Below, piece by piece: positions 4,423 through 55,530 of a stretch of 64,000 bases of DNA. The stretch is taken from the IMG/VR virus record IMGVR_UViG_3300028593_000005. One strand, 5' to 3'. Under the pieces are notes generated by a model. It saw nothing but the letters and a program-made list of their open reading frames with translations, made no database searches and was not told the origin of the DNA. This DNA is from an uncultured virus (IMG/VR IMGVR_UViG_3300028593_000005). Its lineage: Duplodnaviria > Heunggongvirae > Uroviricota > Caudoviricetes. Positions within the stretch are counted from its first letter, which is position 1. The number at the start of each line of letters is the position of its first letter. The translations under genes and the position numbers were made by a program.

Positions 4423-4434
4423 TACTCAGATGTT
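4423..4434 (-). promoter_or_regulatory. Late promoter AACA-N6-TA
   Basis: AACAtctgagTAA on the minus strand, identical to the core at 31783. Confidence 0.65.
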
Positions 4435-4455
4435 TCACCACTATTTGAGCACCTG

Positions 4456-4467
4456 AACATTTCTATA
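4456..4467 (+). promoter_or_regulatory. Late promoter AACA-N6-TA
   Basis: AACAtttctaTAA just before the RBS of 4492. Confidence 0.65.
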
Positions 4468-4491
4468 ATCTAAGAAAGGAGGAGAGTACAC

Positions 4492-5361
4492 ATGTCGTTG
4501 ACTCCACAAGAGATACTTGATAGAGTAGACCCTACTAGACAACACGAGAACGATACAAGCTTTCCGCATTGGTATATCGTAGATGGCGAATTGGTAAACA
4601 TCTACAACTTTGAACCAGCAGATGATCCTCTTCTCGGTAGCACTGATCTATGGTATATTAAAGAGACTGAAGATCCAGACACTCATGAGGTGGTTAAAGA
4701 ACTCGATCATCCAATGCTCCCGTCTCTTGATACTTCTGTCGATAAGCCTGGCTATTGGTATATAAAGGAAACTGTTGATCCAGTTACTGGAGAGGTTACT
4801 AAGGAACTCACTAACCATGGTATTCCTCTGATAGGTCTCGAGGTAAACGGTATATGGTACGTCAAGGATGGCTCCTTGACACATGCCGCTTTCCCTGAGT
4901 TGGTTGAGTATGGATCATATATGAGTAACCAAGTTGTAAACAAAGCTATCATCTTCCCCTCTGTAATGGAGGTAGGAGAATGGGCATTCAAAGATACTCC
5001 TTCAATGCTTGAGGTGTATCTGAATCCAGAGTGTAAGAGATATGATACTTCCTTCCCCGAAGAGTGTGTAGTAAAGGATTGGCCATTGAGTGCAAGGGTT
5101 ACCCAAATGCCGACGAAGACTACATACAATGTGGGAGAGGACTTTGATGTTACTGGTATGAAAGTATTGGTGACATTAGACATGACTGTTATGGGCAAGG
5201 ATTATGGCAGTTATGCATATGAAGCAAACAATGACTACTTTACAGTAGTACAGTTTGATAATACATCTCCAGGTGAGAAGGTAGTTATACTAAGATACAA
5301 AACACCCTATTCAGTCGGACAGTATAGTGTAGTACTGCCTGAGCCTGTAATAGTAGTGTAA
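4492..5361 (+). CDS. Virion accessory protein with WYI repeats, a short LRR_5 unit and a C-terminal Big_3 Ig-like domain
   Basis: PTKTTYNVGEDFDVTGMKVLVT...FDNTSPGEKVV is a typical Big_3 sequence; IFPSVMEVGEWAF is LRR-like; WYIKET.DP.T.EV.KEL is repeated. Confidence 0.7.
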   Translation: MSLTPQEILDRVDPTRQHENDTSFPHWYIVDGELVNIYNFEPADDPLLGSTDLWYIKETEDPDTHEVVKELDHPMLPSLDTSVDKPGYWYIKETVDPVTGEVTKELTNHGIPLIGLEVNGIWYVKDGSLTHAAFPELVEYGSYMSNQVVNKAIIFPSVMEVGEWAFKDTPSMLEVYLNPECKRYDTSFPEECVVKDWPLSARVTQMPTKTTYNVGEDFDVTGMKVLVTLDMTVMGKDYGSYAYEANNDYFTVVQFDNTSPGEKVVILRYKTPYSVGQYSVVLPEPVIVV

Positions 5362-5377
5362 GAAAGGAGAGATATAA

Positions 5378-6490
5378 ATGGCAGTATGGGGAAGTGGAAC
5401 ATTAGAAGATCCTTGGAAAGTGACAGACTGGGATAACTTTGTGTCAAAATGTAATGAGACACAGAGTGTAATTTCAGATAGAACATACATAGAGTTTCCT
5501 ACTCATGATCAGAACGGTAACTTAATACCAGTAGAAGAACGTGTTATAGATCTACGTCATCATGAATGGTTTGTTGGCAATGATGCTGCTGATGTTATAA
5601 TCGATGTATATCGATTCAAAACTATAGAAGGTAATGGATGGACTATCTTAGGATTGAGTATCAGGAATATGACTTTGTTCAGTATAAAGATAGACAGTGA
5701 TGGTAATAGTAAAAGGAATCGTAACAGAAACTTTGAAATGATCAATCTCAACTTTCAGAATATATATGTACACGGTAAATGTATACTTTTCAAAACCTAT
5801 TATAATGGATCCAGGTATTCAATCACTGGTTGTAAGTTCTCTGGAGTGTTTGATGCTTCTATTACCGATATATATAGTAATTATACTTGTGCTATAACAT
5901 ATGGAGCAATCAACCAAGGATGGAATGTATTCACAGCTTGTTCGTTCAACTTCAAATTCGTTTCAGGTATGAGAATTGAATTTACATCATATTACAGCAG
6001 CATTTATAATTCATCCGAGTTCAATAACTGTATCTTCAATATAGAGGGTAAACCTAAACCATTCAATATTAGTATTCTTGTTGCTGGTTATGAAGCTGGA
6101 AGATATCATTTGTGGTATGGTACATTCTACTTCTGCAAGTTCACTGGTAAGTTGCTGTTAGATTGCGCAGATTCGGAAGCGCAAGAGACGTGGTTAGGAA
6201 CATATTTTAATGTAAATGGCTCTTTAAACGTTATAGATATTACACTTAAGAAGGTAACTGCACAATATGACCTCTTTACATATTTCTACAATCTATGCTA
6301 TGGAAGTTCGAATGACAACGAAGTTACCATTAGATACTTTGATAGATCGGACATTCCTGATACTGACGGATTCAGATTTGCTACTAGAAAAGCAAATGTA
6401 TTCAAGATACCAGCAGACAGAGCTCAGATGACAAATAAAGACTGGCTTGAAGATCAAGGTTTTGTAATCGGTACAGCACCGACAACCTAA
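5378..6490 (+). CDS. Putative receptor-binding/beta-helix protein, paralog 1
   Basis: GSGTLEDPW N-terminus, NGWTILGLS, CKFS/CSFN/CIFN repeats and the C-terminus are shared with the next two ORFs. Confidence 0.6.
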   Translation: MAVWGSGTLEDPWKVTDWDNFVSKCNETQSVISDRTYIEFPTHDQNGNLIPVEERVIDLRHHEWFVGNDAADVIIDVYRFKTIEGNGWTILGLSIRNMTLFSIKIDSDGNSKRNRNRNFEMINLNFQNIYVHGKCILFKTYYNGSRYSITGCKFSGVFDASITDIYSNYTCAITYGAINQGWNVFTACSFNFKFVSGMRIEFTSYYSSIYNSSEFNNCIFNIEGKPKPFNISILVAGYEAGRYHLWYGTFYFCKFTGKLLLDCADSEAQETWLGTYFNVNGSLNVIDITLKKVTAQYDLFTYFYNLCYGSSNDNEVTIRYFDRSDIPDTDGFRFATRKANVFKIPADRAQMTNKDWLEDQGFVIGTAPTT

Positions 6491-6505
6491 GAAAGGAGAG
6501 ATTGT

Positions 6506-7537
6506 ATGAACTATGGAGGTTCAGGAGCGTCTAAAGACGATCCTATTGTAATAGACACACTGCAAGATCTTGCCCCTCTTATGCAGAAGAGTGCTGGAAG
6601 TGTTCTTCATATAGCATTCCCAGAGACATATAATGGTCCAAAGGTTATAGATCTTCGTTCCGCTGGATGGAATCCTAACGGAAGGATAAATATCGATTGG
6701 ACTACAGATGGTATCCAAACTATAAGAAGATACGTATACTTCAACGGATGGACCATCTTGGGACTATCTATCATGGGTTCGTTTTTTTTAAATCTCGTAA
6801 TAAATGGTAGAACGAACGCTAACGAGAAGCAGATCTATTTCTATGATCTCACCATTAAGAATGCATACATTCTCGGAGGAGAAGGCGAAGCGTGGTTATT
6901 CCGTACAGAGGCATCTTACGGATGTAGAATATACTTCTATAGATGTAAGTTTTCTATGATGCTTGACTCACAAACGGCATCGACATATGCATTCGCTTCG
7001 ACTGTTGACGAAGAGGAGTTTTACTTTCTCCAATGCTCTTTCAATATACGGCTTAACAGTAATAATGCATCTTATTCTTATAAGACTTGGATCATGAATG
7101 ATTTTCGACAATATAGATGGCTTATGAGAAACTGTATAATGAATATAAGAAGTAACAACTTCCGCGCATGGGGTACTTCCGATAATGATAGTCTGGTGAC
7201 CTGTACCAATATGCAGTTCTCCAAGATTGTTGGAGATATTAAATGTACTGCTAGCGGAAGTACCGAAGTTAAGCTTCTATTTAGTAAATCAGGATGCTTC
7301 TATAATGTTGTAGACATGGCATATAGACACTATACAGAAGAAGGTGTAGTACGCATTAGTTTCGGTACTGGAATGAATATAGTAAACAAGGACAACTTTA
7401 AGTTTAGTAATGGTAATGCTATGGCAGATTCTGAAATCACTGGAAACAACAAAAGTGTTATCACTACCGAACAAATGCTAGATGCCGACTATCTTAACAG
7501 CATAAACTTCATTGTAGGAGACCCTCCGAGTGACTGA
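6506..7537 (+). CDS. Putative receptor-binding/beta-helix protein, paralog 2
   Basis: GSGASKDDPIVI, NGWTILGLS, C-terminal QMLDADYLNSINFIVGDPP. Confidence 0.6.
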   Translation: MNYGGSGASKDDPIVIDTLQDLAPLMQKSAGSVLHIAFPETYNGPKVIDLRSAGWNPNGRINIDWTTDGIQTIRRYVYFNGWTILGLSIMGSFFLNLVINGRTNANEKQIYFYDLTIKNAYILGGEGEAWLFRTEASYGCRIYFYRCKFSMMLDSQTASTYAFASTVDEEEFYFLQCSFNIRLNSNNASYSYKTWIMNDFRQYRWLMRNCIMNIRSNNFRAWGTSDNDSLVTCTNMQFSKIVGDIKCTASGSTEVKLLFSKSGCFYNVVDMAYRHYTEEGVVRISFGTGMNIVNKDNFKFSNGNAMADSEITGNNKSVITTEQMLDADYLNSINFIVGDPPSD

Positions 7538-7538
7538 T

Positions 7539-7564
7539 AGGGAGAGGGAATCATCCCTCTCCCT
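7539..7564. terminator. GC-rich hairpin (putative terminator)
   Basis: AGGGAGAGGGA-atca-TCCCTCTCCCT. Confidence 0.55.
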
Positions 7565-7581
7565 TCATTCTCGTTCACCCG

Positions 7582-7593
7582 AACATTCTAGTA
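7582..7593 (+). promoter_or_regulatory. Late promoter AACA-N6-TA
   Basis: AACAttctagTAA. Confidence 0.65.
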
Positions 7594-7620
7594 ACAATAC
7601 ACATCAAAGGAGGAATTCAT

Positions 7621-8649
7621 ATGGCTATACAGGGAAGTGGAACTTCCAGTGATCCATACATTGTAACAACTTACGACGATTTAGTAAGCACAATTAACTC
7701 TTATCCTCAGAATGGAGGAACTAAGCATATAGCATTCCCAGCTATCTATGATGGCTCGAAAGTTATGGATATGAGAGATAGAGGATGGATGCCAAAATTA
7801 TCTGCTAACCCTCCAAGTACAACTAGTAACCCAGTGAGCTTATATTTACATTGCAATGGATGGACTATACTTGGTTTGTCATGTATGAGCAATAGCTGGT
7901 GGGATACTAGCAACAACGAACCACGATGTAGCCATGTTACTATAGATGATCTGATAATCAAGAATTTCTACCTTCTCAGTACGACTGATGATGAGATAGC
8001 TCTCTTTCAACATAGTACTAGAATAGAAGGTTCTAGACTGACACTAAACAGATGTAAGATGTCTGGTTGCTTGGATGCTATGCAAGGCTATGTTAATATC
8101 GAAATGTATGCTATTGGAACAAATCCATTTTATGCTAACTCTTGCTCATTCAACGTGAAGTTTATCAATCACAATAATCCTGCTGGATTCAATATGCACC
8201 ATATCGATTCTTCTACTGCGGACTTCTTCTACAACTGTATATTCAATATCACCGACCAGAATAATAATAATATAAATGAACGTAGTAACATGTATTGGGA
8301 CTACCTCCTCAGCGGCGAATTGTACTTCTGTAAAATTGTAGGCTTCATAAAGAGGAATCCAAACCATTCATCTGAATCAGGATACTATTATTTCATCCAT
8401 CCAAAAGAGCCATCATGCTATAATGTATTCGACTTTGAAGTTATCGACATGTATAAACGTCTCTGGATAGATAATCAAGAAGGCTATATGTTTGGCGTAT
8501 ATAATAAGGATAAGACCACTGTTGGCGGAAATGATATGTTCAATCCATGCCAACCAAATTACTTCCGCGGTTTAACGTCTGCTCAGATGGTGGATAAGGA
8601 TTACCTCAACTCTATAGACTTCATCTGCGGAGACACACCAAGCTCTTAA
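7621..8649 (+). CDS. Putative receptor-binding/beta-helix protein, paralog 3
   Basis: GSGTSSDPYIV, NGWTILGLS, C-terminal QMVDKDYLNSIDFICGDTP. Confidence 0.6.
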   Translation: MAIQGSGTSSDPYIVTTYDDLVSTINSYPQNGGTKHIAFPAIYDGSKVMDMRDRGWMPKLSANPPSTTSNPVSLYLHCNGWTILGLSCMSNSWWDTSNNEPRCSHVTIDDLIIKNFYLLSTTDDEIALFQHSTRIEGSRLTLNRCKMSGCLDAMQGYVNIEMYAIGTNPFYANSCSFNVKFINHNNPAGFNMHHIDSSTADFFYNCIFNITDQNNNNINERSNMYWDYLLSGELYFCKIVGFIKRNPNHSSESGYYYFIHPKEPSCYNVFDFEVIDMYKRLWIDNQEGYMFGVYNKDKTTVGGNDMFNPCQPNYFRGLTSAQMVDKDYLNSIDFICGDTPSS

Positions 8650-8653
8650 GTTA

Positions 8654-8677
8654 GGTGGTGGGAGGTTTCCCACCACC
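8654..8677. terminator. GC-rich hairpin (putative terminator)
   Basis: GGTGGTGGGA-ggtt-TCCCACCACC. Confidence 0.55.
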
Positions 8678-8688
8678 CTTCTATGCTC

Positions 8689-8700
8689 AACATCTATGTA
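8689..8700 (+). promoter_or_regulatory. Late promoter AACA-N6-TA
   Basis: AACAtctatgTAA. Confidence 0.65.
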
Positions 8701-8726
8701 ACAATAATCTCGAAAGGAGGAGAGTT

Positions 8727-9410
8727 ATGGCTAACAATTGTTGTTTCCCCTATGGAAACGAAGTCTATACTCCTGATATGACTACACATCCTGGTTGGAC
8801 TAAAGTGGTTGCTTGTCCTGCTGCTACTTGTCCCCCTAAGCAGTATATCGTTCCTGGTCATCATCCCTATTGTCCTCCCCCTCATAAGGTAGGAAGAGTT
8901 AAGATAGACGGTACTATCCGACTTTCTGTAACTTATACTGATCATCATGGTCATGTACAGAAGTTCGACATCATACCTGGAGTATCATATGAGATCGATG
9001 CCTTCTCCAACACCCGTGGTATTTGTCACTTCGTCGGCAAGATTGTCGACTTTGAGACAGTCGAAGGTGTACAAGAGATTCTGAAGGCTCCTCACTGCAT
9101 CACTATTTCTGCTATCATAGTAGATTCTAGTGATATGTATGAAAGCCGTCTTCTCAGAATCAGAATGGAGAACATCGAGAGGATGCTTCCTATACTGGGA
9201 CCTGAGCAGCTTAATCCAGTACAGCAGAGCAATGTCTGCATTGAAGATCCATTTGTAGAGAGAGAAGTAGATGTATTCGTCTCACTCCACGATGTAGGAA
9301 CACCTGTTGGTGAAGATGGATCTACGACAAACAACACATCGTCGTCAAGCACTAGTCAGAGTGGCGATACCAATTTTGGTTCAAGTCTTCACGACTATCT
9401 TGACCTGTAA
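8727..9410 (+). CDS. Hypothetical late protein with a Cys/His/Pro-rich N-terminus (start corrected to ATG 8727)
   Basis: AAAGGAGG RBS before ATG 8727; shares a domain with 5..427 and 9466..9798. Confidence 0.7.
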   Translation: MANNCCFPYGNEVYTPDMTTHPGWTKVVACPAATCPPKQYIVPGHHPYCPPPHKVGRVKIDGTIRLSVTYTDHHGHVQKFDIIPGVSYEIDAFSNTRGICHFVGKIVDFETVEGVQEILKAPHCITISAIIVDSSDMYESRLLRIRMENIERMLPILGPEQLNPVQQSNVCIEDPFVEREVDVFVSLHDVGTPVGEDGSTTNNTSSSSTSQSGDTNFGSSLHDYLDL

Positions 9411-9415
9411 TCATC

Positions 9416-9439
9416 GGCTAGGGTGGCAACGCCCTAGCC
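9416..9439 (+). terminator. Hairpin (putative terminator/processing site)
   Basis: GGCTAGGGTG-gcaa-CGCCCTAGCC followed by ttaactttt. Confidence 0.55.
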
Positions 9440-9465
9440 TTAACTTTTGAAAGGAGGAAAACCTA

Positions 9466-9798
9466 ATGTCATATACTATAAAGACTAAGGGTATAACTAC
9501 TGTACATCTGGACATAGAGCTGGATGTGTATAAGGATGATGGCTCTAAAGAGACTATCACTGTATCTATGAAGCCTGGTACAAAATACAAGGTGATCGCT
9601 GTAGATAGAGTTGACAATATGCTTCGTACTATCACAGGTGTGTACTCTCACTTTGGTACTAATCATCCTTGTGGTGGTCATCTCAAGGCAGACTGGATCA
9701 TGATAGACTGTTCTAATGAAGACGGTCGTCATAGAGCTAAGCTCTGTAAGATTATAATAAAAGACATTCGTACACTTGAAGAGATCGTTGATTTCTAA
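9466..9798 (+). CDS. Hypothetical protein (110 aa), paralog family
   Basis: Strong RBS; motif similarity to 5..427. Confidence 0.7.
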   Translation: MSYTIKTKGITTVHLDIELDVYKDDGSKETITVSMKPGTKYKVIAVDRVDNMLRTITGVYSHFGTNHPCGGHLKADWIMIDCSNEDGRHRAKLCKIIIKDIRTLEEIVDF

Positions 9799-9812
9799 TA
9801 GGAGGTGCTAGT

Positions 9813-10616
9813 ATGGCTAAAATATCAGAACACTTCGACACTTATGAATTCCGCTGTAAGTGCGGATGTGGTAAAGGAATACCGTCTACCTTACTGGTAT
9901 CTATGCTCGAACAGCTCTTCGCCTATATGGATGCTAAGGAGATATGGATAAGTAGTGGTTATCGTTGCGATGCTGCTACTCTTGCTATACCTGGCGCATT
10001 CTTAGGCGATGGTCATAACTGCAATGTTAACGGTTCTATTGCTGCAGATCTTTGTGTAATCAAACAAGATGGTGAAAAGTATACTTCTTGGGACATCGCT
10101 GAAGCAGCAGAGAGAATCGGCTTCAATGGTATTCTTCTGATCGATGATTTCTATTGTCATCTCGACACAAGAGGATACGAGCCTTATTCGAATAACCATT
10201 GGTTCGGCAATGAGAGAACTGGAGAGGGATATGAAACCTTCGAGAGAGGTACTGTATTCCCTGGACAAGATGGCTACGATCCTGATAAGGGTATAAGTCT
10301 GGCTTCTCTTGAACTGGAACTTCAGACTATACTGAAGGAGAAAGGTTACGATATCAATACTGATGGTATCATCGGAAACATTACTCTCTCCAAGCTTAGA
10401 GACTTCACTATTGAACCTGGAGATTCTGGAAAGCTTACACTCTGGACTCAGAAGAAGCTTAAGAGTCTTGGTTACGATGTAAATCTTAATGGCATTGCAG
10501 ATCAGAAGATGATGGATGCTATTCATCAGTTCCAGTCTGATAACAAACTCGGTGTAGGTAAGATACTCTCTGGTGGAGATTGGGCTGTACTGGCTAGTAA
10601 GAAAGTAAAGACGTAA
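9813..10616 (+). CDS. Endolysin: peptidase M15 (Zn) domain plus C-terminal peptidoglycan-binding domain
   Basis: SEHF..EFRCKCGCG, ISSGYRC, H..(N)..AAD and HLDTR are M15 motifs; LQTILKEKGY..DGIIG..T and QKKLKSLGY..G..AIHQFQ are PG_binding-like repeats. Confidence 0.85.
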   Translation: MAKISEHFDTYEFRCKCGCGKGIPSTLLVSMLEQLFAYMDAKEIWISSGYRCDAATLAIPGAFLGDGHNCNVNGSIAADLCVIKQDGEKYTSWDIAEAAERIGFNGILLIDDFYCHLDTRGYEPYSNNHWFGNERTGEGYETFERGTVFPGQDGYDPDKGISLASLELELQTILKEKGYDINTDGIIGNITLSKLRDFTIEPGDSGKLTLWTQKKLKSLGYDVNLNGIADQKMMDAIHQFQSDNKLGVGKILSGGDWAVLASKKVKT

Positions 10617-10630
10617 TAGGAGGTTTAAGT

Positions 10631-12215
10631 ATGGCTAATAGCAAGAATTGGCCTTTCAAACCACTTCTTGGTTCGCAACAGGCTATCAATAACCATCCTA
10701 TCAAAAAAAGGACAGTTCCTCATCCGAAAGGATGGGGGTGCTGTCTATTTCGATCAGGATGATGAAACACGAGTTCTCTTAGCCGATGTAGGCGGAGGAG
10801 ATAAGAGCCGCTACACTATACAGAAGTTCACTGATAATGAGACTGGTGAGGTTACTGAGATGCCAGAGAATCCAGATCATACGCATGAATGGCTGGTAGC
10901 TCAAGGCTGGAACTGGTCGTTACAAGACGCAAAAGCCTATGTTACTAAGTATGGCGCACTCAATATCGGACAGCATTATATAACTCCAGATGATAAGACC
11001 GCTATCAATGTCCATCTTCCAGAAGGTTGTCTGAATCCTCAACTTGGACTGTTTGTAGATGGATCAGTTCTTGTAGAATGGGGAGATGGCACAGAAGACA
11101 CTCTCACTAATACTGGAATGGAGTACACTTATGCTTCACATCAGTATGCTGAACCTGGTCAGTACTATATACTTCTTACTGTAACTGGTAATGCAGAGAT
11201 CAAGAGCACCAATGGTGCTAATGTATTCTTCTGTAAGGGCGGTAAGGGTACTAGTAAGCCAGGTAATGAGTCTAGAGCTTACAGCAACTGTATCGTTGAT
11301 GTTCATCTTGGAGCTAACATCGACATCGGCGAGTTTGCATTCTATAGATGCTACTCAATGAAGCATATATCGATTCCCTCCACAATACGATCTATCAATG
11401 AATCATCATTCAAATGGGACTCTACTCTTGAGTCTATAGTTATACCTCATGGTGTGACCGAGCTTGGGGCTAATACATTTGAAGGATGCTATGGAATGAG
11501 ATTCCTTTCTGTTCCTAACACATTAAAATCTATAGGAGATTGTTGCTTTGCACAATGCTATTCGCTCGTATGTGCTACATTTCCAGAAACTATGACATCT
11601 ATAGGTAGCTCAGCATTTGCTGATAACCCTTCATGTGATGTGCTTCTGACTCCTGGGGCTAAAAATATTCCATTTGAATTCATAATACGTAACCGTACTA
11701 TGGCGGCATTCTCTATTCCAGAGGGTGTAACAGCTTTAGGTGGCTATGCATTTGCATTATGTTACGGACTTAAAGATATCACATTACCATCTACTCTTCT
11801 GTCTGCTGGAGCTTCTTGTTTCACAGACTGCCAAGCTCTTAACTCTATAAGACTCCCTGATACTTTCACTACTTTGGGTGAGAGTATGTTCAACAACTGC
11901 ACTGCTCTTCAGCAAGTTAATATACCTTCTAGTGTGACTACAATACCTACTAAGTGCTTTAGACAGTGCTACTCGATGACTAAGATAGAGATTCCCTCTT
12001 CAATAGAGACTATAGCTGCAGAAGCATTCACTACTTGTTCTGGATTGGGAATCATAAAGTTCCTTGGTTCTACTCCACCTACAGTGGCTAATGCCAATGC
12101 ATTCACTAGTCTGGAAAATTCATGTAGGATACTTGTACCTGAAGGAAGTCTTGCTGCATATACATCAGCTCAGAACTATCCAGATCATACTAAGTATACA
12201 TATGAAGAGTACTAA
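10631..12215 (+). CDS. BspA-type leucine-rich-repeat (LRR_5) protein with a PKD-like domain; frame broken by an A7 run at 10703..10709
   Basis: GGAGG RBS and ATG at 10631, but that frame stops at 10762. The LRR frame (IP.SVT.IG..AF..C repeats, VEWGDG) is +1; removing one A gives a 527-aa fusion. Confidence 0.75.
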
Positions 12216-12224
12216 AAAATAAAG

Positions 12225-12247: not shown

Positions 12248-12254
12248 TATCCGT

Positions 12255-13410: not shown

Positions 13411-13422
13411 AACACTCTAATA
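13411..13422 (+). promoter_or_regulatory. Late promoter AACA-N6-TA
   Basis: AACActctaaTAA. Confidence 0.65.
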
Positions 13423-13448
13423 ATACTACACCTAAAGGAGGTTTAGAT

Positions 13449-14333: not shown

Positions 14334-14346
14334 TCCTTAACAGACA

Positions 14347-18354: not shown

Positions 18355-18424
18355 GTGTACTCCTCCTTTCATATCCCGACCTGTTAATATAGTGTAAGTG
18401 GTCAGGTACACATGTACTACATAT

Positions 18425-18434
18425 ATAATATACA
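18425..18434 (-). promoter_or_regulatory. Putative early promoter TGTATATTAT
   Basis: Heads the 18354->14373 small-gene operon. Confidence 0.6.
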
Positions 18435-18467
18435 GCCAAACCATCTATTAAAAGGAGAGTGATATCT

Positions 18468-28440: not shown

Positions 28441-28484
28441 TAATCGTCCCAAACACGTACGATTACTTGATTATTTAATGGTTG
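28441..28484 (-). promoter_or_regulatory. Polymerase leader element copy 1 (AACC-N6-TAA promoter plus TAATCGT/ACGATTA hairpin)
   Basis: 43/44 identical to 55432..55475. Confidence 0.8.
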
Positions 28485-28710: not shown

Positions 28711-28722
28711 AACACTCTTATA
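28711..28722 (+). promoter_or_regulatory. Late promoter AACA-N6-TA (back-to-back with 28688..28699)
   Basis: AACActcttaTAA. Confidence 0.65.
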
Positions 28723-28747
28723 AATTTAACAGAAGGAGGTATGATTC

Positions 28748-29727: not shown

Positions 29728-29737
29728 TATATATTAT
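29728..29737 (+). promoter_or_regulatory. Putative early promoter TATATATTAT
   Basis: Heads the 29798..31748 small-gene operon; followed by a hairpin at 29745..29769. Confidence 0.5.
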
Positions 29738-29797
29738 AGAGGTACCAGGAAGTCGTTTCGGCTTCCTGGCAATCTAAAATAAAAGGAGGTACAGACA

Positions 29798-31765: not shown

Positions 31766-31807
31766 ACTGGTGGTAGAGCTCGAACATCTGAGTAAACTAC
31801 CACCAGT
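31766..31807 (+). terminator. Terminator hairpin whose loop contains a late promoter (31783..31794)
   Basis: ACTGGTGGTAG/CTACCACCAGT 11-bp stem followed by ttattttt; loop holds AACAtctgagTAA. Confidence 0.65.
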
Positions 31808-33131: not shown

Positions 33132-33185
33132 GCAATAACAGGACCCACAACCCTCTTATAATATAATTAAAGGAGGAATTCTAGC

Positions 33186-37717: not shown

Positions 37718-37805
37718 ACTCTAATTTCTCACATTTACAATCGCCCCCAACTCAATCCGTTCAGAGTCAACTTTATAATAAATTCAATACCAAAAAGGAG
37801 GAATC

Positions 37806-41474: not shown

Positions 41475-41486
41475 AACAATATATTA
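41475..41486 (+). promoter_or_regulatory. Late promoter AACA-N6-TA
   Basis: AACAatatatTAA upstream of the capsid gene. Confidence 0.7.
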
Positions 41487-41579
41487 AATATAGCCCCTAT
41501 CCGTATGGCGGTCAGTGTGGCTATTAGTTTTCCAAGGTAAACTCTTACTATCATAAATCTAAAAAGGAGGAAATGAATT

Positions 41580-47869: not shown

Positions 47870-48736
47870 TTAAACCGCCTGCTGCTGAGGCTGTACTGTC
47901 TGGATACTGCTCTGCATGATTGTAGGAATGCCATTGAGCTCATTGACGAAGTTGTCTTCAAAGAACTCAAGATTACATATGAATGGTGTTTTAACTATTT
48001 CGCTTGTGCCGAGCTTCGTCACCATATCATCATGAGACGAGAAGCTATATACTTCATAAAGATCTGTCATTACAGAGAATATAGATGGGCTCATATAGTC
48101 ATTCACTTCTCCAGTTATATACTTTTTCATCAGTGAATAGTCATGAGTAGATGTACATAACCAGAAAGCGGTGTTCTTCTTGATGTTCTGCTCTAAACGA
48201 TTCCACCAATCAGCGATTGTGCATGGGAATGGTATCGGCGATGGTATCGACTTTACTGCTTCATAAAATGCTTTGAACTCTTCCCACATCTGTTCAGGTG
48301 AAGGGAAGTTCTTAGGAACCACATACTTATCATAGACAAGCTTTTCAAAACTCTTCAGAACCTGATGAGTCTTGATCTGATCGTACAGCATCATTGCGAT
48401 ACTTGTGTTTGTCTTTGCGATCTGAGCGTCCACCGCATCCTGTCTCTGCTGAGGCGTTAAGCTCGGATCCTTGATCAAATCAAGAGTTGTCTTGTATGTT
48501 GTACTGAACTCCTTTTCTCTCTTGAAAACGGATCCAGTATAGAACAGTATCTCCACAGGATAACCGATGTGGGTTATCTGAAATGAGATCCTCATGTTTG
48601 GAACGTCGAATTCAGTGCATACTACGCTGTATCCCTGAATTCCTGTTGTTGCCATTGCGTTGGTTACGTTGAACGTAATGTTCTGTATAACCTTAGTGTC
48701 ATCAACTTTGTTTGTGTTTGCATCATAATAGATCAT
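47870..48736 (-). CDS. Hypothetical early protein
   Basis: 288 aa, AAAGGAGG RBS; early motif at 48800..48809. Confidence 0.75.
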   Translation of the reverse strand: MIYYDANTNKVDDTKVIQNITFNVTNAMATTGIQGYSVVCTEFDVPNMRISFQITHIGYPVEILFYTGSVFKREKEFSTTYKTTLDLIKDPSLTPQQRQDAVDAQIAKTNTSIAMMLYDQIKTHQVLKSFEKLVYDKYVVPKNFPSPEQMWEEFKAFYEAVKSIPSPIPFPCTIADWWNRLEQNIKKNTAFWLCTSTHDYSLMKKYITGEVNDYMSPSIFSVMTDLYEVYSFSSHDDMVTKLGTSEIVKTPFICNLEFFEDNFVNELNGIPTIMQSSIQTVQPQQQAV

Positions 48737-48799
48737 AATGTGATCCTCCTTTAAAAATTTTTATTACGAGAGCTGATCAGCTTGCTCTCTTACACCTAT

Positions 48800-48809
48800 A
48801 TAATATACA
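48800..48809 (-). promoter_or_regulatory. Putative early promoter TGTATATTAT
   Basis: Heads the 48736->46204 operon. Confidence 0.6.
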
Positions 48810-50423: not shown

Positions 50424-52568
50424 TTAGTTGTTTAAGTCCTCTGGCTTCTCAATGATTTCGAAGAGAGGTTTAGTCTGTACTTCACTCTCTACCTTCTCTG
50501 CCATGTAAACCTGCGGCTGAACATGAGCAAACATGTCGAGCTTACTAGGTGCTGTCTTTCTGAAGGAGATTGGTTTGTACAGTGTACGAGCAAGGTTCTC
50601 ATACTGCATGGTAACCTGAATGCTCGGATTAGTCTCAAGAGCCTGACGAAGAGTAAGTATTCTATACTCCTGATCTGGATAGTCCCAGTCTGGCTTTAGA
50701 AGTACATCATCTACAGCTCTGATCTGGTTCATGATTATGATTTCTGCATGGACGGAACGGATACCACCCATACCGCAATCGATAAGCTTATTGATGAAGT
50801 CCCTAAGAATCTCATGTCTTGTATAGTTACAAGTCTTTGTCTTGAGATTGATGATAGACATAACCTCTTTCAGATTCTTACCAAGATCGTCATTATAAAT
50901 ACCTACACCAAAGACAGGTATTCTAGACTGCTGAAGATCTGTGATAGGAATGAAGATGTCTGTCTCATCCTCATACTGTTTAGAGTTTATCAGCTTACAG
51001 AACTCATCCTGGAGATACAGACATTCATTGTTAGTACCATGAATCTCTATCACTTCTCCCTCTGGAGTTATGATCTCAAACTGAGTAATGTAATCTCTGA
51101 GTATATCGAAGTCGTCACCATCACCATCGCTATCACTCATAGATACAACTGTTTCTGTATCTACGCTGTCTCTATCGATATGAATCAACCACTTCTTACC
51201 ACCAAGAAATTCACTGTTTACATAGATATCCTCATCGTCGAACGTAAAGAACTGATCGAACTGCTCCTGAGGAGTACTCCACTCAATCTTACTAATCTTA
51301 GCCTCAAGAAGATGCTTAGCAGACAGCATAAGCTGAGTGAGAGTCTGTGAGATTAACTCTGCGGCAATCTTACCGATGTTTACGATGCGATTGCCCATGA
51401 AGAGATTTCCATAACACTTCCTACAAATGCCCTGTCCTCTGGCTGCACTTGCACAAGTGATAGGAGATCTCAGATAGATTGTCTTACCAACAAGATCATG
51501 TCTAAGAGTATTGAGACAACCAGTGTTATACTCCATTCCGTCAGGATGAAGTCTGAAGTATCTATCCTGATACATCTCGATATTCTCTTCAGTGAGAGTT
51601 ACTTCAACGAAGTTCTTGGTATGACAATCATAGTCAGGATCAACGTTGCCGAACTCATCTGTATAGAGATTCGTATCTATCTGGTTCAGACCAAGTACTC
51701 TGGCGAAAGCACCTGAATCTGCTGTGTTCTGTTTGGACAGAATCTGAGCCTGACGTCCAATACCTGCTTCAGCTACCATCCATTCAAAACGGTTAAGACC
51801 ACCTCTCATATAAGAAGCGTCTATAGAGTGTGGGAAGATTCCTCCCTCACCGTTAGGCTTGATACCAATGTTAGAGATCATCTCTCTAAACTGCTTTGGC
51901 TTTACACCTACCTTAGCCCTGAAAGCATCTGCAAGACAGTGGTCTCTTCCAATCCACTTCTTACTCTCAAGGATAAGCTCAATGATTCTATTACAATCCT
52001 TCATTGCCTCGGCGTTCATCTGATCAGCAGGAAGGTTTGAATAGTCTTTATGCATCAGCTCATCAAACTCAGGACAAGCATTAGCCATGAGAATGAAGTC
52101 CTCATGATTGATTGAGTTGTTGTAGAACAGAGCAAACTTCTCTGCGAACTTAAGAGTCTTATGGTTAGTATAGATCATCTCATTAAGTCTCTTAGGATCC
52201 ATCGTTTCTCTGTTAGGAATGATAGCGTACTTGTTGATGTAGTTTGCTATAGCCTTCTTATCTATTCCCTTCTTACAGAAGAACAGATGCCAAGGCTTAA
52301 GTGTATGTCCTGCTTCAAGAACGAAGCCCCACATACAAAGATTGACCATAAGATCTGGTAATGTGAGTCTTACACTCTTCTTATAGTCTCTGAATGTGAC
52401 TGTTACTTTAGTCTGCATTAGCGGTTGTTCGACGTTATCTGTAATCAGATTCTGCAGACCTATACGATAGTCATTAAGTTTTGTGTTGTCGAGATTTTCA
52501 GCTACGATCTCAACAGGTTGATTCTGAAGTAAGCATGTCCATACTCCATATAAATCGGTTCGTGTCAT
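50424..52568 (-). CDS. rpoC: Split multisubunit RNA polymerase beta' C-terminal subunit (likely non-virion RNAP)
   Basis: Bridge helix KQNTADSGAFAR; Zn site RSPITC..GICRKCYG; trigger loop IGKIAAELISQTLTQLMLSAKH; HAEIII..QIR; no DFDGD; early motif at 52630..52639. Confidence 0.9.
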   Translation of the reverse strand: MTRTDLYGVWTCLLQNQPVEIVAENLDNTKLNDYRIGLQNLITDNVEQPLMQTKVTVTFRDYKKSVRLTLPDLMVNLCMWGFVLEAGHTLKPWHLFFCKKGIDKKAIANYINKYAIIPNRETMDPKRLNEMIYTNHKTLKFAEKFALFYNNSINHEDFILMANACPEFDELMHKDYSNLPADQMNAEAMKDCNRIIELILESKKWIGRDHCLADAFRAKVGVKPKQFREMISNIGIKPNGEGGIFPHSIDASYMRGGLNRFEWMVAEAGIGRQAQILSKQNTADSGAFARVLGLNQIDTNLYTDEFGNVDPDYDCHTKNFVEVTLTEENIEMYQDRYFRLHPDGMEYNTGCLNTLRHDLVGKTIYLRSPITCASAARGQGICRKCYGNLFMGNRIVNIGKIAAELISQTLTQLMLSAKHLLEAKISKIEWSTPQEQFDQFFTFDDEDIYVNSEFLGGKKWLIHIDRDSVDTETVVSMSDSDGDGDDFDILRDYITQFEIITPEGEVIEIHGTNNECLYLQDEFCKLINSKQYEDETDIFIPITDLQQSRIPVFGVGIYNDDLGKNLKEVMSIINLKTKTCNYTRHEILRDFINKLIDCGMGGIRSVHAEIIIMNQIRAVDDVLLKPDWDYPDQEYRILTLRQALETNPSIQVTMQYENLARTLYKPISFRKTAPSKLDMFAHVQPQVYMAEKVESEVQTKPLFEIIEKPEDLNN

Positions 52569-52629
52569 TGTCCTCTACCTCCTTAGTATTGGATAGTTTC
52601 AGTATAGGTAAACCTCTACTGTCGCTCCT

Positions 52630-52639
52630 ATAATATACA
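52630..52639 (-). promoter_or_regulatory. Putative early promoter TGTATATTAT
   Basis: Upstream of the beta'C-helicase operon. Confidence 0.6.
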
Positions 52640-52656
52640 ACGAAAGGCATGATTGA

Positions 52657-52679
52657 GAGGGTAGGCATTGCCTACCCTC
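52657..52679. terminator. Palindromic hairpin, identical to 44890..44912
   Basis: GAGGGTAGGCATTGCCTACCCTC. Confidence 0.65.
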
Positions 52680-52686
52680 CATTCGA

Positions 52687-53133
52687 TTAGTCTCTGTGAG
52701 AGATGTCTGCAGCCTTAAGCATCTTAGGCTTGTTGACATTCTTGAGATACTCCTTCTGGCCGATTCTTGCAACCTTCTGAGCTCTTGAGTTGTACTTCTT
52801 CTCAATAGCTGCGAGAAGCTTACGCTCTCTGATACGGTTGACCTTAAGAGCCTTCCAGAGAGGATCGTTGTTATCCTTAGCAAGCTGAAGAGCAGCCATA
52901 GTTGTACGTCTGCTGATGTCATCGTTCTTGTTAAGTCTAACCAGTGTCTTGCGGTTAGTGATGTTCTTCTTCTCGAGAAGAGCGATCTCTGCTGATTCGA
53001 AGAGAGCTTTCTTTTCCTCATCGCTGCAGTTAGCGAAATCATCGTAGAAGAAAGCTTCCATGAGTGCATCCATGTCTACGTCGATAGCTTCGACCTCAGG
53101 ACTTACTCCAGTTGACTGTGAATATATTCCCAT
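52687..53133 (-). CDS. Probable small internal head protein (acidic propeptide plus basic mature part)
   Basis: Acidic N-half with LME/LFE/LLE sites; very basic C-half; high codon bias; AACT-N6-TAA at 53188..53199. Confidence 0.55.
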   Translation of the reverse strand: MGIYSQSTGVSPEVEAIDVDMDALMEAFFYDDFANCSDEEKKALFESAEIALLEKKNITNRKTLVRLNKNDDISRRTTMAALQLAKDNNDPLWKALKVNRIRERKLLAAIEKKYNSRAQKVARIGQKEYLKNVNKPKMLKAADISHRD

Positions 53134-53225
53134 GTTTGGATTCCTCCTTGTTTAGTATATCTGAGTGGTGTAATTGCCACTACTGATTATATAATAGTTC
53201 TGTCAGAACGACTAAAAAGAAGGAA

Positions 53226-53252
53226 ATGGGTAGGGAAGAACTCCCTACCCAT
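53226..53252 (-). terminator. Terminator after the polymerase C-half
   Basis: ATGGGTAGGGA/TCCCTACCCAT with a pyrimidine tail on the minus strand. Confidence 0.65.
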
Positions 53253-53256
53253 AGCC

Positions 53257-55413
53257 TTACAGGGATACAATGTTTGTGAAGTTCACATTCTTCTTCTCTC
53301 GTCTGTCTATGCCGAGAGCTTCTACTGGGAATGTAGCAATGTTATCATTGATAACCTGAGTGTAGTTGATGAATGGCTTAACCCACTCTGGTACATCTTC
53401 TTCAGAAAGTATAGCAATATTACCACACTCTCCCTTGAAGTCCTTTGATGCGAGCATCTTTACTGCTCTTTCGTATACATCTGGGAATGTGTCCTTGATC
53501 TGGTCGATATTCTTTTCTGTCATATCTGTCTTGATGATCAGAACAGTGTTACGTGTAGTAAGATCAATGATTGGCTCATTGTCTCTTCTGAGCAGATTAT
53601 ACGCTACAGCCGCCTTGATGGTATACTGCCCCATAGGATCTGCATAACCAGACGATGCCTTTATACGCTGTGGCTTAAAGTAACTCTTATCACCTGCCAT
53701 GAGAGAGTCGTAGATCATCTTCTCAAGAGCAGCGAGCTGTTTGATGATATCTATCTGAGAAATATTCTCTGCATTGAGCACGAAGTACCATAGGATTTCT
53801 TCAATTCTTCTTGCTGTCTTCTCAGGTATACCAACCTTACGGATAGGCATACCTTTAACATCAAGAGCTTCCTCAAGAGGAATGAATGCATTCTCCTGAC
53901 GTTCCTGATAACAACAGTAGTTCTTCTTCACCATTGTAACGAGAGCCTGCTTAAGCTGGAACTCATTCTTGAGTATGAAGAATGACTTACGTATCTTACC
54001 GTCTGCTGTTTTGATAGCATTAGAGTTAGTAGAATACCTTGTCATATAATCAATCGACAAACGTCCCATGATATGAGCAAGTACATTGATGAGAGAACAA
54101 CGATATCCTGCTGTAGGACCTACAGAGTTATCATCACTCAGAGTCTGCTGAAGATCAATAACTTCATCCTTGAAGAAGTCGTAGTCATATGAATGAACGT
54201 CTGCTCTCCATACCTTACCCTCATTGTTCTGCTCGATTTCCTTAATCCTCATCGGGATCTTGTATGTCTTATCAAGAAGATAACGATACCATCCATCGAA
54301 GCTAATGAAGCAAGAGTCAGTATCTGTAAGGATAGATACAGAACGAACCATGTTCTCTGCTCTATCGAGACGATCCATATACTGATGTCCATAGTATACA
54401 TACTCTTTAACGAGTTCATATACTTCATCAAGAGCTGCTTTGATCTGATCTGCAAGATGACTAGCTTCTTCTTCAGTCATCGGGTTATCAGTATCCTTAA
54501 GAGCATCATAGATGTCCTTAGCATTAGGAGTCTTGTTCGGATCCATGAAGTGTATCGGAAGCAAACTGAGGAAGTATACAACCTTATCCATAACGTACTT
54601 ATTGTCGAAGAAGTAGAAGAGGTTATTCTTGAAGAAGATACGGTTAAGATCTTCCTGGTCAAGCTGATTGATGATATCCCATACAATCATCAGATCCTTC
54701 TCTGAAGGTCTGTAGTAGAAACCACATGTACAGATAAGCTGACAGAATACATCGTATGCTGATACTGGCATATCAATGACATCATAGTCATTATACTTAC
54801 GAGTAGGTCTCTCACGACGAACGTTATTGATGAACTGTATGATCTCATTGAGTGAGCCGAACTTAACGTTATTGTTGAGTGTAGCTTCAAACAAGAGAAG
54901 TGCTGTAGCAATACAGTTCTGACCCTGCATCGTGATAGACGAAGCAACGTTAACGTTGTAGAAGATAGATGTATGATTACCACTAGCTCCATAGATAGCA
55001 TTTGCAGATACTTTCTCTGAAAGCTGAAGAAGATTATACTTCTCATACATCTCTGATCCCTTAGGATACTTAAGCATCATATCCTTATACTCAGCTCTCT
55101 TAGTCAGGAACTCCTGAATGAGGTCTACGTATGGGTTAGGACAAGTATCATGCTTCTTAAAGAGAACACCAGATACAGTTACTATCGGTTCTCGTTCTAT
55201 GATATATTTCAGGACGTTATACAATGTAGTGTCCTGCTGATTGTGTGTGTAATTGTTATCCAGTTTCACTGGTGTATCAGAAAATCTTTTAGCTATAGAG
55301 TAATCTATAGCTGCATCGATATCCGCATCGAACAGTCTTGGGAATGACAGTCTCAATGCTTCTTTCATTTCGGTCTTATAGATGGTAAGACCTTTGTTTG
55401 ATATAGGTATCAT
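53257..55413 (-). CDS. polB: Split family B DNA polymerase, C-terminal subunit (motifs B and C)
   Basis: R..YK..M, Q..EKVSANAIYG (motif B), TDTDS (motif C), KKNY, VKG. Confidence 0.9.
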   Translation of the reverse strand: MIPISNKGLTIYKTEMKEALRLSFPRLFDADIDAAIDYSIAKRFSDTPVKLDNNYTHNQQDTTLYNVLKYIIEREPIVTVSGVLFKKHDTCPNPYVDLIQEFLTKRAEYKDMMLKYPKGSEMYEKYNLLQLSEKVSANAIYGASGNHTSIFYNVNVASSITMQGQNCIATALLLFEATLNNNVKFGSLNEIIQFINNVRRERPTRKYNDYDVIDMPVSAYDVFCQLICTCGFYYRPSEKDLMIVWDIINQLDQEDLNRIFFKNNLFYFFDNKYVMDKVVYFLSLLPIHFMDPNKTPNAKDIYDALKDTDNPMTEEEASHLADQIKAALDEVYELVKEYVYYGHQYMDRLDRAENMVRSVSILTDTDSCFISFDGWYRYLLDKTYKIPMRIKEIEQNNEGKVWRADVHSYDYDFFKDEVIDLQQTLSDDNSVGPTAGYRCSLINVLAHIMGRLSIDYMTRYSTNSNAIKTADGKIRKSFFILKNEFQLKQALVTMVKKNYCCYQERQENAFIPLEEALDVKGMPIRKVGIPEKTARRIEEILWYFVLNAENISQIDIIKQLAALEKMIYDSLMAGDKSYFKPQRIKASSGYADPMGQYTIKAAVAYNLLRRDNEPIIDLTTRNTVLIIKTDMTEKNIDQIKDTFPDVYERAVKMLASKDFKGECGNIAILSEEDVPEWVKPFINYTQVINDNIATFPVEALGIDRREKKNVNFTNIVSL

Positions 55414-55431
55414 AGTTTTCCTCCTTGTTCA

Positions 55432-55475
55432 TAATCGTCCCAAACACGTACGATTATTTGATTATTTAATGGTTG
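55432..55475 (-). promoter_or_regulatory. Polymerase leader element copy 2
   Basis: 43/44 identical to 28441..28484; an additional early motif lies at 55487..55496. Confidence 0.8.
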
Positions 55476-55518
55476 AGTGTTCTCTAATAGTATACAATCG
55501 TACCAATTTGGAGGGAGG

Positions 55519-55530
55519 AACATCTTAGTA
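55519..55530 (+). promoter_or_regulatory. Late promoter AACA-N6-TA
   Basis: AACAtcttagTAA. Confidence 0.65.

Follow-up and report, generated by a model that had tools for sequence, protein, structure and literature searches.

A repeated AAC(A/T/C)-N6-TAA word as the very probable late promoter of a jumbo phage with AR9-type RNA polymerase homologs and, most probably, thymine DNA

Genes and late-type sites in the window

The window, a 64,000-nucleotide stretch of DNA from an uncultured virus, is part of a ~229-kb jumbo phage genome. In total, 54 genes were called in it, including those for virion proteins, the major capsid protein, DNA polymerase, NrdD and one RNA polymerase subunit. A complete record that is 95% identical to the window (G001) was used as a proxy for the remainder of the genome, and 195 of its upstream regions were scanned. 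The GC content of the phage is 41%, whereas 72.25% A+U is reported for AR9 (PMC5449584).

The initial annotation described AACA-N6-TAA at 12 places as a window-wide late promoter, accompanied by six variants with another base at the fourth position. All 12 exact sites are present, with those on the minus strand offset by 1 (corrected to 4422-4434, 25680-25692 and 28687-28699), as are all six variants (2997 minus, 18439, 28472 minus, 33149, 37769 and 53188 minus). Two further exact matches, at 30986 and 39268, are intragenic and were not listed, and two late-type sites were overlooked, namely 452-464 and 55462-55474, both on the minus strand, the latter belonging to the second DNA polymerase gene. 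The late-type sites, given with their distances to the following gene and, for some, matrix scores, are as follows.

452..464, minus strand: late-type promoter AACTATCCTATAA with its putative +1 at 453, which is 26 nt upstream of gene 5-427; 17.0 bits
2996..3008, minus strand: late-type promoter (variant) AACGATACAGTAA, putative +1 at 2997, 26 nt before gene 2162-2971; 14.9 bits
4422..4434, minus strand: late-type promoter AACATCTGAGTAA, 31 nt before virion-protein gene 3610-4392
4456..4468, plus strand: late-type promoter AACATTTCTATAA, 25 nt before gene 4492-5361; 22.6 bits, the best match of the window
7582..7594, plus strand: late-type promoter, 28 nt before gene 7621-8649, preceded by a terminator-like hairpin at 7544-7561
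8689..8701, plus strand: late-type promoter, 27 nt before gene 8727-9410
13411..13423, plus strand: late-type promoter, 27 nt before gene 13449-14333
18439..18451, plus strand: AACC variant, 18 nt before virion-protein gene 18468-19193; matrix-weak, <9 bits
19216..19228, plus strand: late-type promoter, 71 nt before the 909-aa gene 19298-22027; 10.9 bits
25680..25692, minus strand: late-type promoter, 21 nt upstream of gene 23267-25660; the gene product matches the AR9 region annotated as portal vertex protein g128
28471..28483, minus strand: AACC variant with a conserved hairpin in the leader that follows, 52 nt upstream of the gene for the exonuclease part of DNA polymerase (26423-28420)
28711..28723, plus strand: late-type promoter, 26 nt before gene 28748-29722
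31783..31795, plus strand: late-type promoter, 42 nt before gene 31836-33131
33149..33161, plus strand: AACC variant, 26 nt before the first NrdD ORF, 33186-34430
37769..37781, plus strand: AACT variant, 29 nt before the 878-aa gene 37809-40445
41475..41487, plus strand: possible late promoter AACAATATATTAA, comparatively weak (11.0 bits) and distant, 94 nt upstream of the start of major capsid gene 41580-43580
53187..53199, minus strand: AACT variant, 55 nt before ORF 52687-53133 (start as in the G001 ortholog)
55462..55474, minus strand: AACC variant, 50 nt before DNA polymerase catalytic gene 53257-55413, with the same leader as at 28471
55519..55531, plus strand: late-type promoter, 25 nt before the giant tape-measure-like ORF 55555->64000

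Position and form of the late motif

Counted over the whole window, the bare AACA-N6-TAA showed no enrichment, as 14 matches were found against 10.9 expected and 21 of 100 shuffles reached 14. Within 80 nt upstream of genes, by contrast, it occurred at 9 of the 54 genes compared with 0.64 in shuffles (maximum 4 in 300), and AAC[CGT]-N6-TAA occurred at 8 of the 54 compared with 1.26. The signal is one of position, not of bulk abundance. Among the 25 weight-matrix matches of at least 9 bits in the window, 20 lie no more than 120 nt upstream of a same-strand start, where ~1.3 would be expected (binomial P = 5e-22), a test that is not fully independent because the matrix was trained on the 95% identical relative.

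An unbiased 4-N(4-8)-3 scan of the 195 G001 upstream regions ranked ACAT-N5-TAA (37 regions) and AACA-N6-TAA (40 regions, 1.9 expected) as the top two patterns, which are pieces of one motif. The matrix of 71 G001 sites reads A-11 A-10 C-9 (A/T/C)-8 ... W-3 R-2 T-1 A+1 A+2, with frequencies of.92 for A-11 and.98 for A-10, C-9, T-1 and A+1. Position -8 is A in 61%, T in 23%, C in 13% and G in 3% of the sites, position -2 is a purine, and position +2 is A in 92%, so that the motif ends in TAA. In 1,290 upstream regions of relatives, AAC-N7-TAA was again the top pattern (265 versus 66).

The AR9 late promoter is reported as AACA-(6N)-TA/G with the last base as the start site (PMC5312081, PMC5449584), and that of AR9/PBS1, 5'-A(-11)ACA-N6-T-A/G(+1), is used by an nvRNAP holoenzyme of gp270, gp154, gp105, gp089 and gp226. 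The 71-site matrix agrees with this published promoter, bearing out the match to the AR9 nvRNAP consensus claimed by the initial annotation; the AAC core, the 6-nt spacer and the TA at the putative start are common to both phages. The script recovered the motif of AR9 itself (66 of 281 regions versus 16.5) and gave median distances from +1 to the start codon of 28 nt in G001 and 29.5 nt in AR9. The two differ at position -8, which is relaxed here (A>T>C), whereas AAC[CGT] variants are not enriched in AR9 (18 versus 21.6).

At 9 of the 12 exact sites, the A of TAA lies 21-42 nt upstream of the start codon, while the sites at 19216 (71 nt) and 41475 (94 nt, capsid gene) are farther away. The site at 28688 on the minus strand, at <9 bits and 268 nt away from the next gene, may be a chance match. 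Terminator-like hairpins directly 5' of many late-type sites create terminator-promoter-RBS cassettes.

Early-type sites and the polymerase genes

A second type of site was found upstream of several genes of the window.

52623..52637, minus strand: early-type promoter TATATTAT-N6-G, putative +1 at 52623, 55 nt before the nvRNAP beta'-C gene
48793..48807, minus strand: early-type promoter before gene 47870-48736
29730..29744, plus strand: early-type promoter before gene 29798-30073
18418..18432, minus strand: early-type promoter before gene 17766-18311
55480..55494, minus strand: early-like site TATACTAT-N6-A, directly upstream of, and in tandem with, the late-type site of DNA polymerase gene 53257-55413
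50424..52568, minus strand: nvRNAP beta'-C subunit gene, homolog of AR9 gp154 (28% identity)

TATA[CT]TAT-N6-R was found upstream of 6 of the 54 window genes (0.35 expected) and of 19 of the 195 G001 genes (1.29 expected), and as its antisense counts were also high (5 in the window and 11 in G001), the pattern alone is less specific. The early promoter of AR9, AAATATATATTAT-(6N)-G(+1), which is used by the virion RNAP, resembles the TATA(T/C)TAT-N6-G/A found here before nvRNAP subunit genes, and homologs of the AR9 virion-polymerase subunits are present as well. The conserved core here falls short of the AR9 13-mer, accepts C at position 5 and lacks a long A/T run in front of it.

The distribution of the two types over gene classes follows AR9, with late promoters on virion-polymerase genes and early promoters on nvRNAP genes. 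Early-type sites precede the beta'-C, beta-C and gp226-like genes of the nvRNAP and some replication genes, and late-type sites precede virion-protein, portal-like, tape-measure-like and virion-RNAP genes, including all four virion-polymerase genes at distances of 26-31 nt. An early-type site upstream of a late-type one was seen for DNA polymerase gene 53257-55413 and for GyrA and DnaB of G001, which corresponds to the 'continuously expressed' arrangement of AR9. The suggestion in the initial annotation that AACC marks a separate 'middle' class was not supported in that form: position -8 is simply degenerate in the 71 G001 sites and AACC also precedes virion-protein gene 18468-19193, so AACC usage is better explained by this degeneracy together with tandem early and late promoters.

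The beta'-C gene is the sole polymerase subunit gene inside the window, and the other subunits were identified in G001, which encodes homologs of all five AR9 nvRNAP subunits (gp154, gp089, gp105, gp270 and gp226). The gp226-like specificity subunit, for which the initial annotation had recommended a search, is thus among them. Its family profile matches PDB 7s01_A (E 7.7e-69), its AF2 model (pLDDT 86.5) gave 7s01_A as the best Foldseek match (E 1e-14) and phiKZ gp68 (8que_B) as the next best (E 5e-7), and the gene order primase / gp226 / g227 / GroEL is conserved as in AR9. The homolog is only 22% identical to AR9 gp226, and AR9 Val206, the residue that selects for uracil, aligns with Asp274, an alignment anchored by the near-invariant Trp208, which is conserved in 89 of 92 family members. 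The AR9 beta-N residues that contact the -10 base by stacking and hydrogen bonding, R363 and K375, correspond in pairwise BLAST to R399 and K411 of the G001 gene 121426-123231.

By polymerase subunit, the closest isolated relatives are PBS1/AR9, BpSp, phiR1-37, the Staphylococcus S6 group and Listeria LPJP1. The phiKZ nvRNAP is a homologous split beta/beta' polymerase with a fifth subunit of the gp68/gp226 type and is reported to read thymine DNA (PMC9209446). It differs in its late promoter, T(-3)ATG(+1), in which TATG lies at the start site and a -10-like AACA is lacking (PMC7598289). AR9-group phages were also the best matches in the beta'-C search, and phiKZ was absent from the 37 records with a match.

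Reading of the promoter and the base of the DNA

It is very probable that the recurring AAC(A)-N6-TAA word serves as a late promoter for the phage's own RNA polymerase, as in Bacillus phage AR9. The fuller reading, that AAC(A/T/C)-N6-TAA sites are AR9-type late promoters of the jumbo phage's own nvRNAP and that its DNA is most probably thymine DNA, is the one we consider likely. In this scheme, the injected virion polymerase would read TATA(T/C)TAT-N6-G promoters, from which the five-subunit nvRNAP would be produced early. Its sigma-like gp226 homolog would bind AAC at positions -11 to -9, and RNA synthesis would begin at the A of TAA, yielding leaders of about 25-30 nt that carry only the ribosome-binding site. 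The DNA would be thymine (C5-methylated), unlike that of AR9, and the polymerase would therefore have to accept T across from the two A's. In one study, four RNA runs contain the phage as contigs only, whose ends lie near, not at, the predicted starts and do not resolve 5' ends.

As sequencing cannot tell U from T, the base is judged from gene content. A putative ThyX with the RHR...SQRY motif is encoded at 100484-101854 of G001 (E 1e-39); it carries an insertion of ~150 residues, its motif is shorter by one residue than that of the solved ThyX aligned with it, and the AR9 genome has no match to it. None of Ugi (g104), dCMP deaminase (g221) and 5'(3')-deoxyribonucleotidase (g151) of AR9 had a G001 match better than E 0.07 by blastp, phmmer and six-frame tblastn, a search that a fast-evolving small inhibitor could escape, and G002, a second label for the G001 record, lacks PF00383. 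Thymidylate synthase was found in 39 of 42 large related records (ThyX in 27 and ThyA in 12, without overlap) and dUTPase-family matches in 21 of the 42. This ThyX evidence was drawn from relatives, G001 among them, and not from the genome to which the window belongs. The gene content suggests that the phage DNA is probably thymine DNA, not AR9-like uracil DNA. The initial annotation had left the choice between a dU genome and an nvRNAP reading thymine, and proposed searches for Ugi, dCMP deaminase, dUTPase and thymidylate synthase; the thymine-reading branch is now favoured and the dU branch disfavoured, a thymidylate synthase being counted as refuting the latter by that annotation itself.

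An AR9-type late promoter on a dU-substituted genome, as in AR9/PBS1, with ThyX inactive, briefly used or otherwise employed, is nevertheless the strongest alternative, although an unlikely one. The nearest isolated polymerase relatives include the phages listed as having uracil DNA, namely PBS2/AR9, BpSp, phiR1-37 and S6 (PMC7598289), the AA at -11/-10, where AR9 requires template-strand uracils, is the most conserved element together with C-9, and no dUTPase match was found in G001. Against these stand the ThyX with its motifs, the synthases and dUTPase-family genes of the relatives and the Asp in place of gp226 Val206, which is reported to be absolutely conserved in dU phages (PMC9209446). 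The traits of the uracil-DNA jumbo phages PBS1/AR9, phiR1-37, S6 and BpSp, that is, absence of thymidylate synthase, homologs of Ugi, dCMP deaminase and deoxyribonucleotidase, and gp226 Val206, are unmatched here, whereas the five nvRNAP subunits and the conserved beta-N R363/K375 are shared with AR9.

A further-modified thymine, that is, a C5-substituted pyrimidine other than T on which the promoter is read, is very unlikely. Base modification is frequent in large phages, and the ThyA family, found in 12 of the 42 relatives, also includes dUMP hydroxymethylases; G001, however, carries ThyX, not ThyA, and the proteins examined, most of which fall into no family, gave no glucosyl-, kinase- or aminotransferase-type modification genes by Pfam/PHROGs. 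Just as improbable is an RNA-level signal (a processing site or leader translation element) or a host-polymerase promoter with an unrecognised phage factor, since the near-fixed distance before the RBS that favours it is not rigid (18 to about 70 nt, with some sites before long leaders), terminator-like hairpins stand immediately before many sites, sigma-70-like matches show no enrichment (45 versus 57.4), no sigma-factor Pfam match was found among 188 proteins, and motif, spacing and gene classes agree with the experimentally mapped AR9 promoter.

Thymine tolerance and the gp226 family

To our knowledge, the AR9 polymerase is the only multisubunit RNA polymerase that reads a -10-like element on the template strand. 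The literature searched gave no report of an AR9-type late promoter in thymine-DNA phages. It seems somewhat more probable than the contrary that jumbo phages of 180-310 kb, forming a large and mostly uncultured clade, retain the -10-like AAC word and the gp226/beta-N pocket of AR9 while making thymidylate. If so, template-strand promoter reading by a sigma-like subunit would not be tied to uracil, and the uracil dependence of AR9 would be a derived specialisation. The uracil need of AR9 has been proposed as a way of avoiding initiation on host DNA (PMC5449584); with relatives using the same word on thymine DNA, this self/non-self explanation could not be general, and the short AAC...TAA word would have to gain specificity some other way. 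The late promoter can be read straight from sequence in the clade, which aids the annotation of hundreds of metagenomic jumbo phages.

In AR9, the exclusion at the -11 uracil position is reported to come from the backbone of the bound DNA itself, not from a side chain (PMC9209446), so that a T-tolerant enzyme would need a different hold on the DNA. The engineered gp226 mutant V206G accepts T at -10 according to the same source, providing an AR9-type holoenzyme that uses template-strand thymine there; it is laboratory-made and reported only for -10, whereas natural enzymes would need to accept T at both -11 and -10. Asp274 has a C-beta like Val, so the substitution alone predicts no room for the methyl group. 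If the clade reads thymine, nature would already hold many thymine-tolerant solutions for both the -10 and -11 pockets, and natural gp226 variants, of which the family has 416 clusters at 50% identity, serve as test cases for two base pockets accepting or excluding a C5 methyl group. At the position of Val206, the 92 aligned members vary (V 18, T 14, G 13, K 9, the remainder including Asp and gap), and the Gly of the engineered mutant is among the natural residues; the residue there does not track thymidylate synthase, as several ThyX/ThyA relatives carry Val.

Putative late-type promoter sites upstream of genes

Genes are tightly packed in the window (64 kb, ~41% GC), which shows strong AAGGAGG ribosome-binding sites. 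PHROGs and Pfam assign virion proteins, a major capsid protein, a helicase, and a family-B DNA polymerase and an NrdD, both split. Neither Rfam nor a tRNA scan gave a match in the window. No close isolate was found in the phage collection, where the capsid protein matched only Listeria phage LPJP1 at 24% identity, and near-identical DNA to window 1-20000 occurs in runs labelled soil, wastewater and activated-sludge metagenome. All gene statements outside the window rest on the full sequence of the relative G001 (IMG/VR record, 229,448 bp, CheckV 100%) or on other relatives. G001 is circularly permuted relative to the window and matches most of it at 87-97% identity, with unmatched stretches such as 5373-7506.

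Each of the 12 exact AACA-N6-TAA sites in the initial annotation, and each of its six variants, was found in the window, together with two additional exact matches at 30986 and 39268, both intragenic. The bare AACA-N6-TAA word is not enriched window-wide (14 versus 10.9 expected, with 21 of 100 shuffles reaching 14). The enrichment is positional and oriented: within 80 nt upstream, AACA-N6-TAA precedes 9 of the 54 called window genes versus 0.64 when dinucleotides were shuffled (no more than 4 in any of 300 shuffles), and AAC[CGT]-N6-TAA precedes 8 of 54 versus 1.26. The corresponding counts for G001 are 35/195 versus 2.43 and 31/195 versus 4.56. An unbiased scan of all 4-N(4-8)-3 patterns in the G001 upstream regions ranked ACAT-N5-TAA (37) and AACA-N6-TAA (40/195 versus 1.9) as the top two, which are parts of one motif.

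The matrix built from 71 G001 sites reads A-11 A-10 C-9, then A (.61), T (.23) or C (.13) at -8, then t t t n W-3 R-2 T-1 A+1 A+2. When it was applied to the window, 20 of the 25 hits of at least 9 bits had a same-strand start within the next 120 nt, versus 1.3 expected, a test that is only partly independent since the matrix derives from a 95%-identical relative. The putative +1 A lies at a median of 28 nt upstream of the start codon, and several late-type sites are located directly 3' of terminator-like hairpins, such as that at 7544-7561. In total, 78 related loci were collected. With the G001-like ones set aside, the remaining 73 supplied 1,290 non-identical upstream regions, in which an unbiased 3-N-3 scan again ranked AAC-N7-TAA first (265 versus 66), although this enrichment is absent in a few loci. 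Chance as the source of the motif is ruled out by the upstream enrichment in the window, G001 and the relatives, as well as by the placement of the matrix hits.

The AR9 genome, processed by the same procedure as a positive control, carried AACA-N6-TA upstream of 66/281 called genes versus 16.5 expected, and the distance from +1 to the start codon had a median of 29.5 nt; AAC[CGT] variants were without enrichment (18 versus 21.6). The matching motif and distance indicate that promoter word and geometry are the same in the window lineage and AR9, for which excerpts of PMC5312081 report AACA-(6N)-TA/G as the late consensus, transcription starting at its last base; a review (PMC7598289, in extract) was also used for comparison. 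Different from AR9, the window lineage is relaxed at -8 and almost always has A at +2.

Four RNA-Seq runs from one activated-sludge study matched 46-74% of the words sampled from window 1-10000. The RNA contigs over window 1-20000 showed fairly even depth and no pile-up of molecule starts, these being contigs only, with DNA carry-over possible. Some contigs terminate in adapter sequence close to predicted starts: three begin at 7610, 8732 and 3089, compared with predicted +1 positions at 7593, 8700 and 3060/3071, and one contig end at 18270 adjoins an intragenic early-like site with a predicted +1 at 18269; the offsets are 1-32 nt, in runs all of one study. The start sites are putative.

A terminator and late-promoter cassette lies upstream of gene 7621-8649 (window 7507-7630). 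Two copies are present in G001 (1476-1570 and 2583-2706), each ahead of a different gene; promoter and leader are identical in both, which indicates that the regulatory cassette was duplicated. A strong late-type promoter also precedes a giant ORF (window 55555-64000, open end; G001 57196-70443, 4,415 aa in G001), which weakly matches the AR9 tape-measure gene region and whose C-terminal region in G001 carries C39-like peptidase, phage tail lysozyme and M23 peptidase domains.

RNA polymerases and gene classes

Homologs of each of the five AR9 non-virion RNA polymerase (nvRNAP) subunits are encoded in G001, and virion-polymerase subunits likewise.

Homologs of AR9 nvRNAP subunits
G001 52065-54209 (window 50424-52568, minus strand): gp154 homolog, a phiKZ/AR9-type RNA polymerase subunit by PHROGs/Pfam
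G001 127546-129774: gp089 homolog
G001 121426-123231: gp105 homolog
G001 184051-185604: gp270 homolog
G001 209296-210975: gp226 homolog (22% identity, E 1e-11)

The gp226-like promoter-specificity subunit, which the initial annotation suggested seeking in the rest of the genome, is present in G001, and its neighbourhood (primase, g227-like, GroEL) keeps the AR9 gene order. A PDB sequence search with the single protein gave no match, and in the phage collection it matched only BpSp and phiR1-37. A profile of 42 family members matched AR9 gp226 (chain 7s01_A) along its full length (E 7.7e-69), and the AF2 model (pLDDT 86.5) gave 7s01_A as the best Foldseek match (E 1e-14), followed by phiKZ gp68. 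The family comprises 416 clusters at E up to 0.001 in a 50%-identity protein library. An nvRNAP of this type would be the enzyme reading the late-type sites, presumably on the template strand.

The early-type pattern TATA(T/C)TAT-N6-G/A, which resembles the AR9 early consensus AAATATATATTAT-(6N)-G reported in excerpts of PMC5312081, was found upstream of 6/54 window genes versus 0.35 and 19/195 G001 genes versus 1.29; with antisense counts of 5 and 11, respectively, the pattern alone is less specific. Early-type sites precede the nvRNAP beta'-C, beta-C and gp226-like genes, and late-type sites lie 26-31 nt upstream of all four virion-polymerase genes, the same gene-class logic as in AR9. Sigma-70-like promoters showed no enrichment (45 versus 57.4), and no sigma factor was found among the 188 proteins scanned.

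Uracil or thymine in the DNA

The AR9 nvRNAP requires uracils at template -11 and -10, and promoter binding requires gp226 (PMC5449584, in part). According to the portion of PMC9209446 consulted, gp226 Val206 blocks the C5 methyl at -10 and the V206G mutant accepts T, a methyl at -11 is kept out by the backbone of the DNA, and the -10 base is held by beta-N residues R363 and K375. Both beta-N residues are kept in G001 as R399 and K411. The Val206 column holds Asp274 in G001, adjoining the near-invariant Trp208, and among 92 full-length family members it reads V in 18, T in 14, G in 13, K in 9 and others. Val206 was rejected as a uracil/thymine predictor in this clade, as the column varies freely and Val occurs alongside ThyX or ThyA in several relatives.

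The initial annotation had left open a dU-substituted genome, for which thymidylate synthase and dUTPase should be absent and Ugi, dCTP/dCMP deaminase and a dTMP phosphatase present. The gene content favours thymine over uracil as the DNA base. G001 encodes a ThyX of 456 aa (100484-101854; PF02511, E 1e-39) with GHDSIVEH and RHR...SQRY motifs and ThyX enzymes as best PDB matches; the AR9 genome gave no match to it, and the AR9 annotation lists no thymidylate synthase. Searches of G001 with blastp, phmmer and six-frame tblastn detected no homolog of AR9 Ugi, dCMP deaminase or 5'(3')-deoxyribonucleotidase.

Records were searched for 42 of the related loci (contigs of at least 183 kb, including some near-duplicates, with G002 being the same record as G001). 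Of these, 27 have ThyX and 12 others ThyA, giving 39/42 with a thymidylate synthase and leaving G024, G027 and G043 without one. dUTPase-family matches occur in 21 of the 42 and dCMP-deaminase-family matches in five. G024 (record of L073, 200,990 bp) lacks ThyX/ThyA, has dCMP-deaminase-family and dUTPase-family matches, and its gp226 homolog has NAVIW in place of the AR9 DVVIW; it is a candidate for uracil DNA inside this clade.

The G001 ThyX contains a ~150-residue insertion between its conserved N- and C-terminal parts. It is followed by a 492-aa ORF (region G001 100484-103332, L009:484-3332) with a P-loop GPDACGKGT and no family match, which could be a nucleotide kinase.

The AACC variant and replication genes

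The proposal that replication genes use AACC as a possible 'middle' class does not stand in that form. In the window, both polymerase genes (28471 and 55462, minus strand) and NrdD (33149) carry AACC, but so does a virion-protein gene (18439), and in G001 AACA occurs at GyrB, DnaB and SbcC and AACT at GyrA. At replication genes, an early-like site frequently lies upstream of the late-type one, e.g. 55480-55494(-), an arrangement that matches the continuously expressed gene class of AR9 described in part of PMC5312081.

Over ~46 nt, a single mismatch separates the leaders of both DNA polymerase genes, window 28424-28483(-) and 55417-55474(-). The common stretch comprises the AACC word of the promoter together with a hairpin (stem TAATCGT/ACGATTA, 11-nt loop) directly 5' of the ribosome-binding site; the hairpin's folding energy is not unusual (z about -1). 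The stretch may serve both polymerase halves as a common operator at the translational or transcriptional level.

Two ORFs, 33186-34430 and 34754-36436 (region 33186-37233), make up the split NrdD; the second has a weak intein-domain match and is followed by an HNH endonuclease gene at 36547-37233. G001 has an additional 275-aa ORF (35189-36016) in the gap. The arrangement resembles an intron or intein whose homing-endonuclease content varies, and Rfam detected no group I intron there.

Elsewhere in G001, a 445-aa protein (131242-132579; L010:11242-12579) weakly matches the tubulin/FtsZ GTPase domain (E 6e-4, below the Pfam cut-off), and 221667-222512 (L015:1667-2512) encodes a protein with a domain like Tad2 (Thoeris anti-defence 2; E 2.8e-6), neighboured by a WDGH domain protein.
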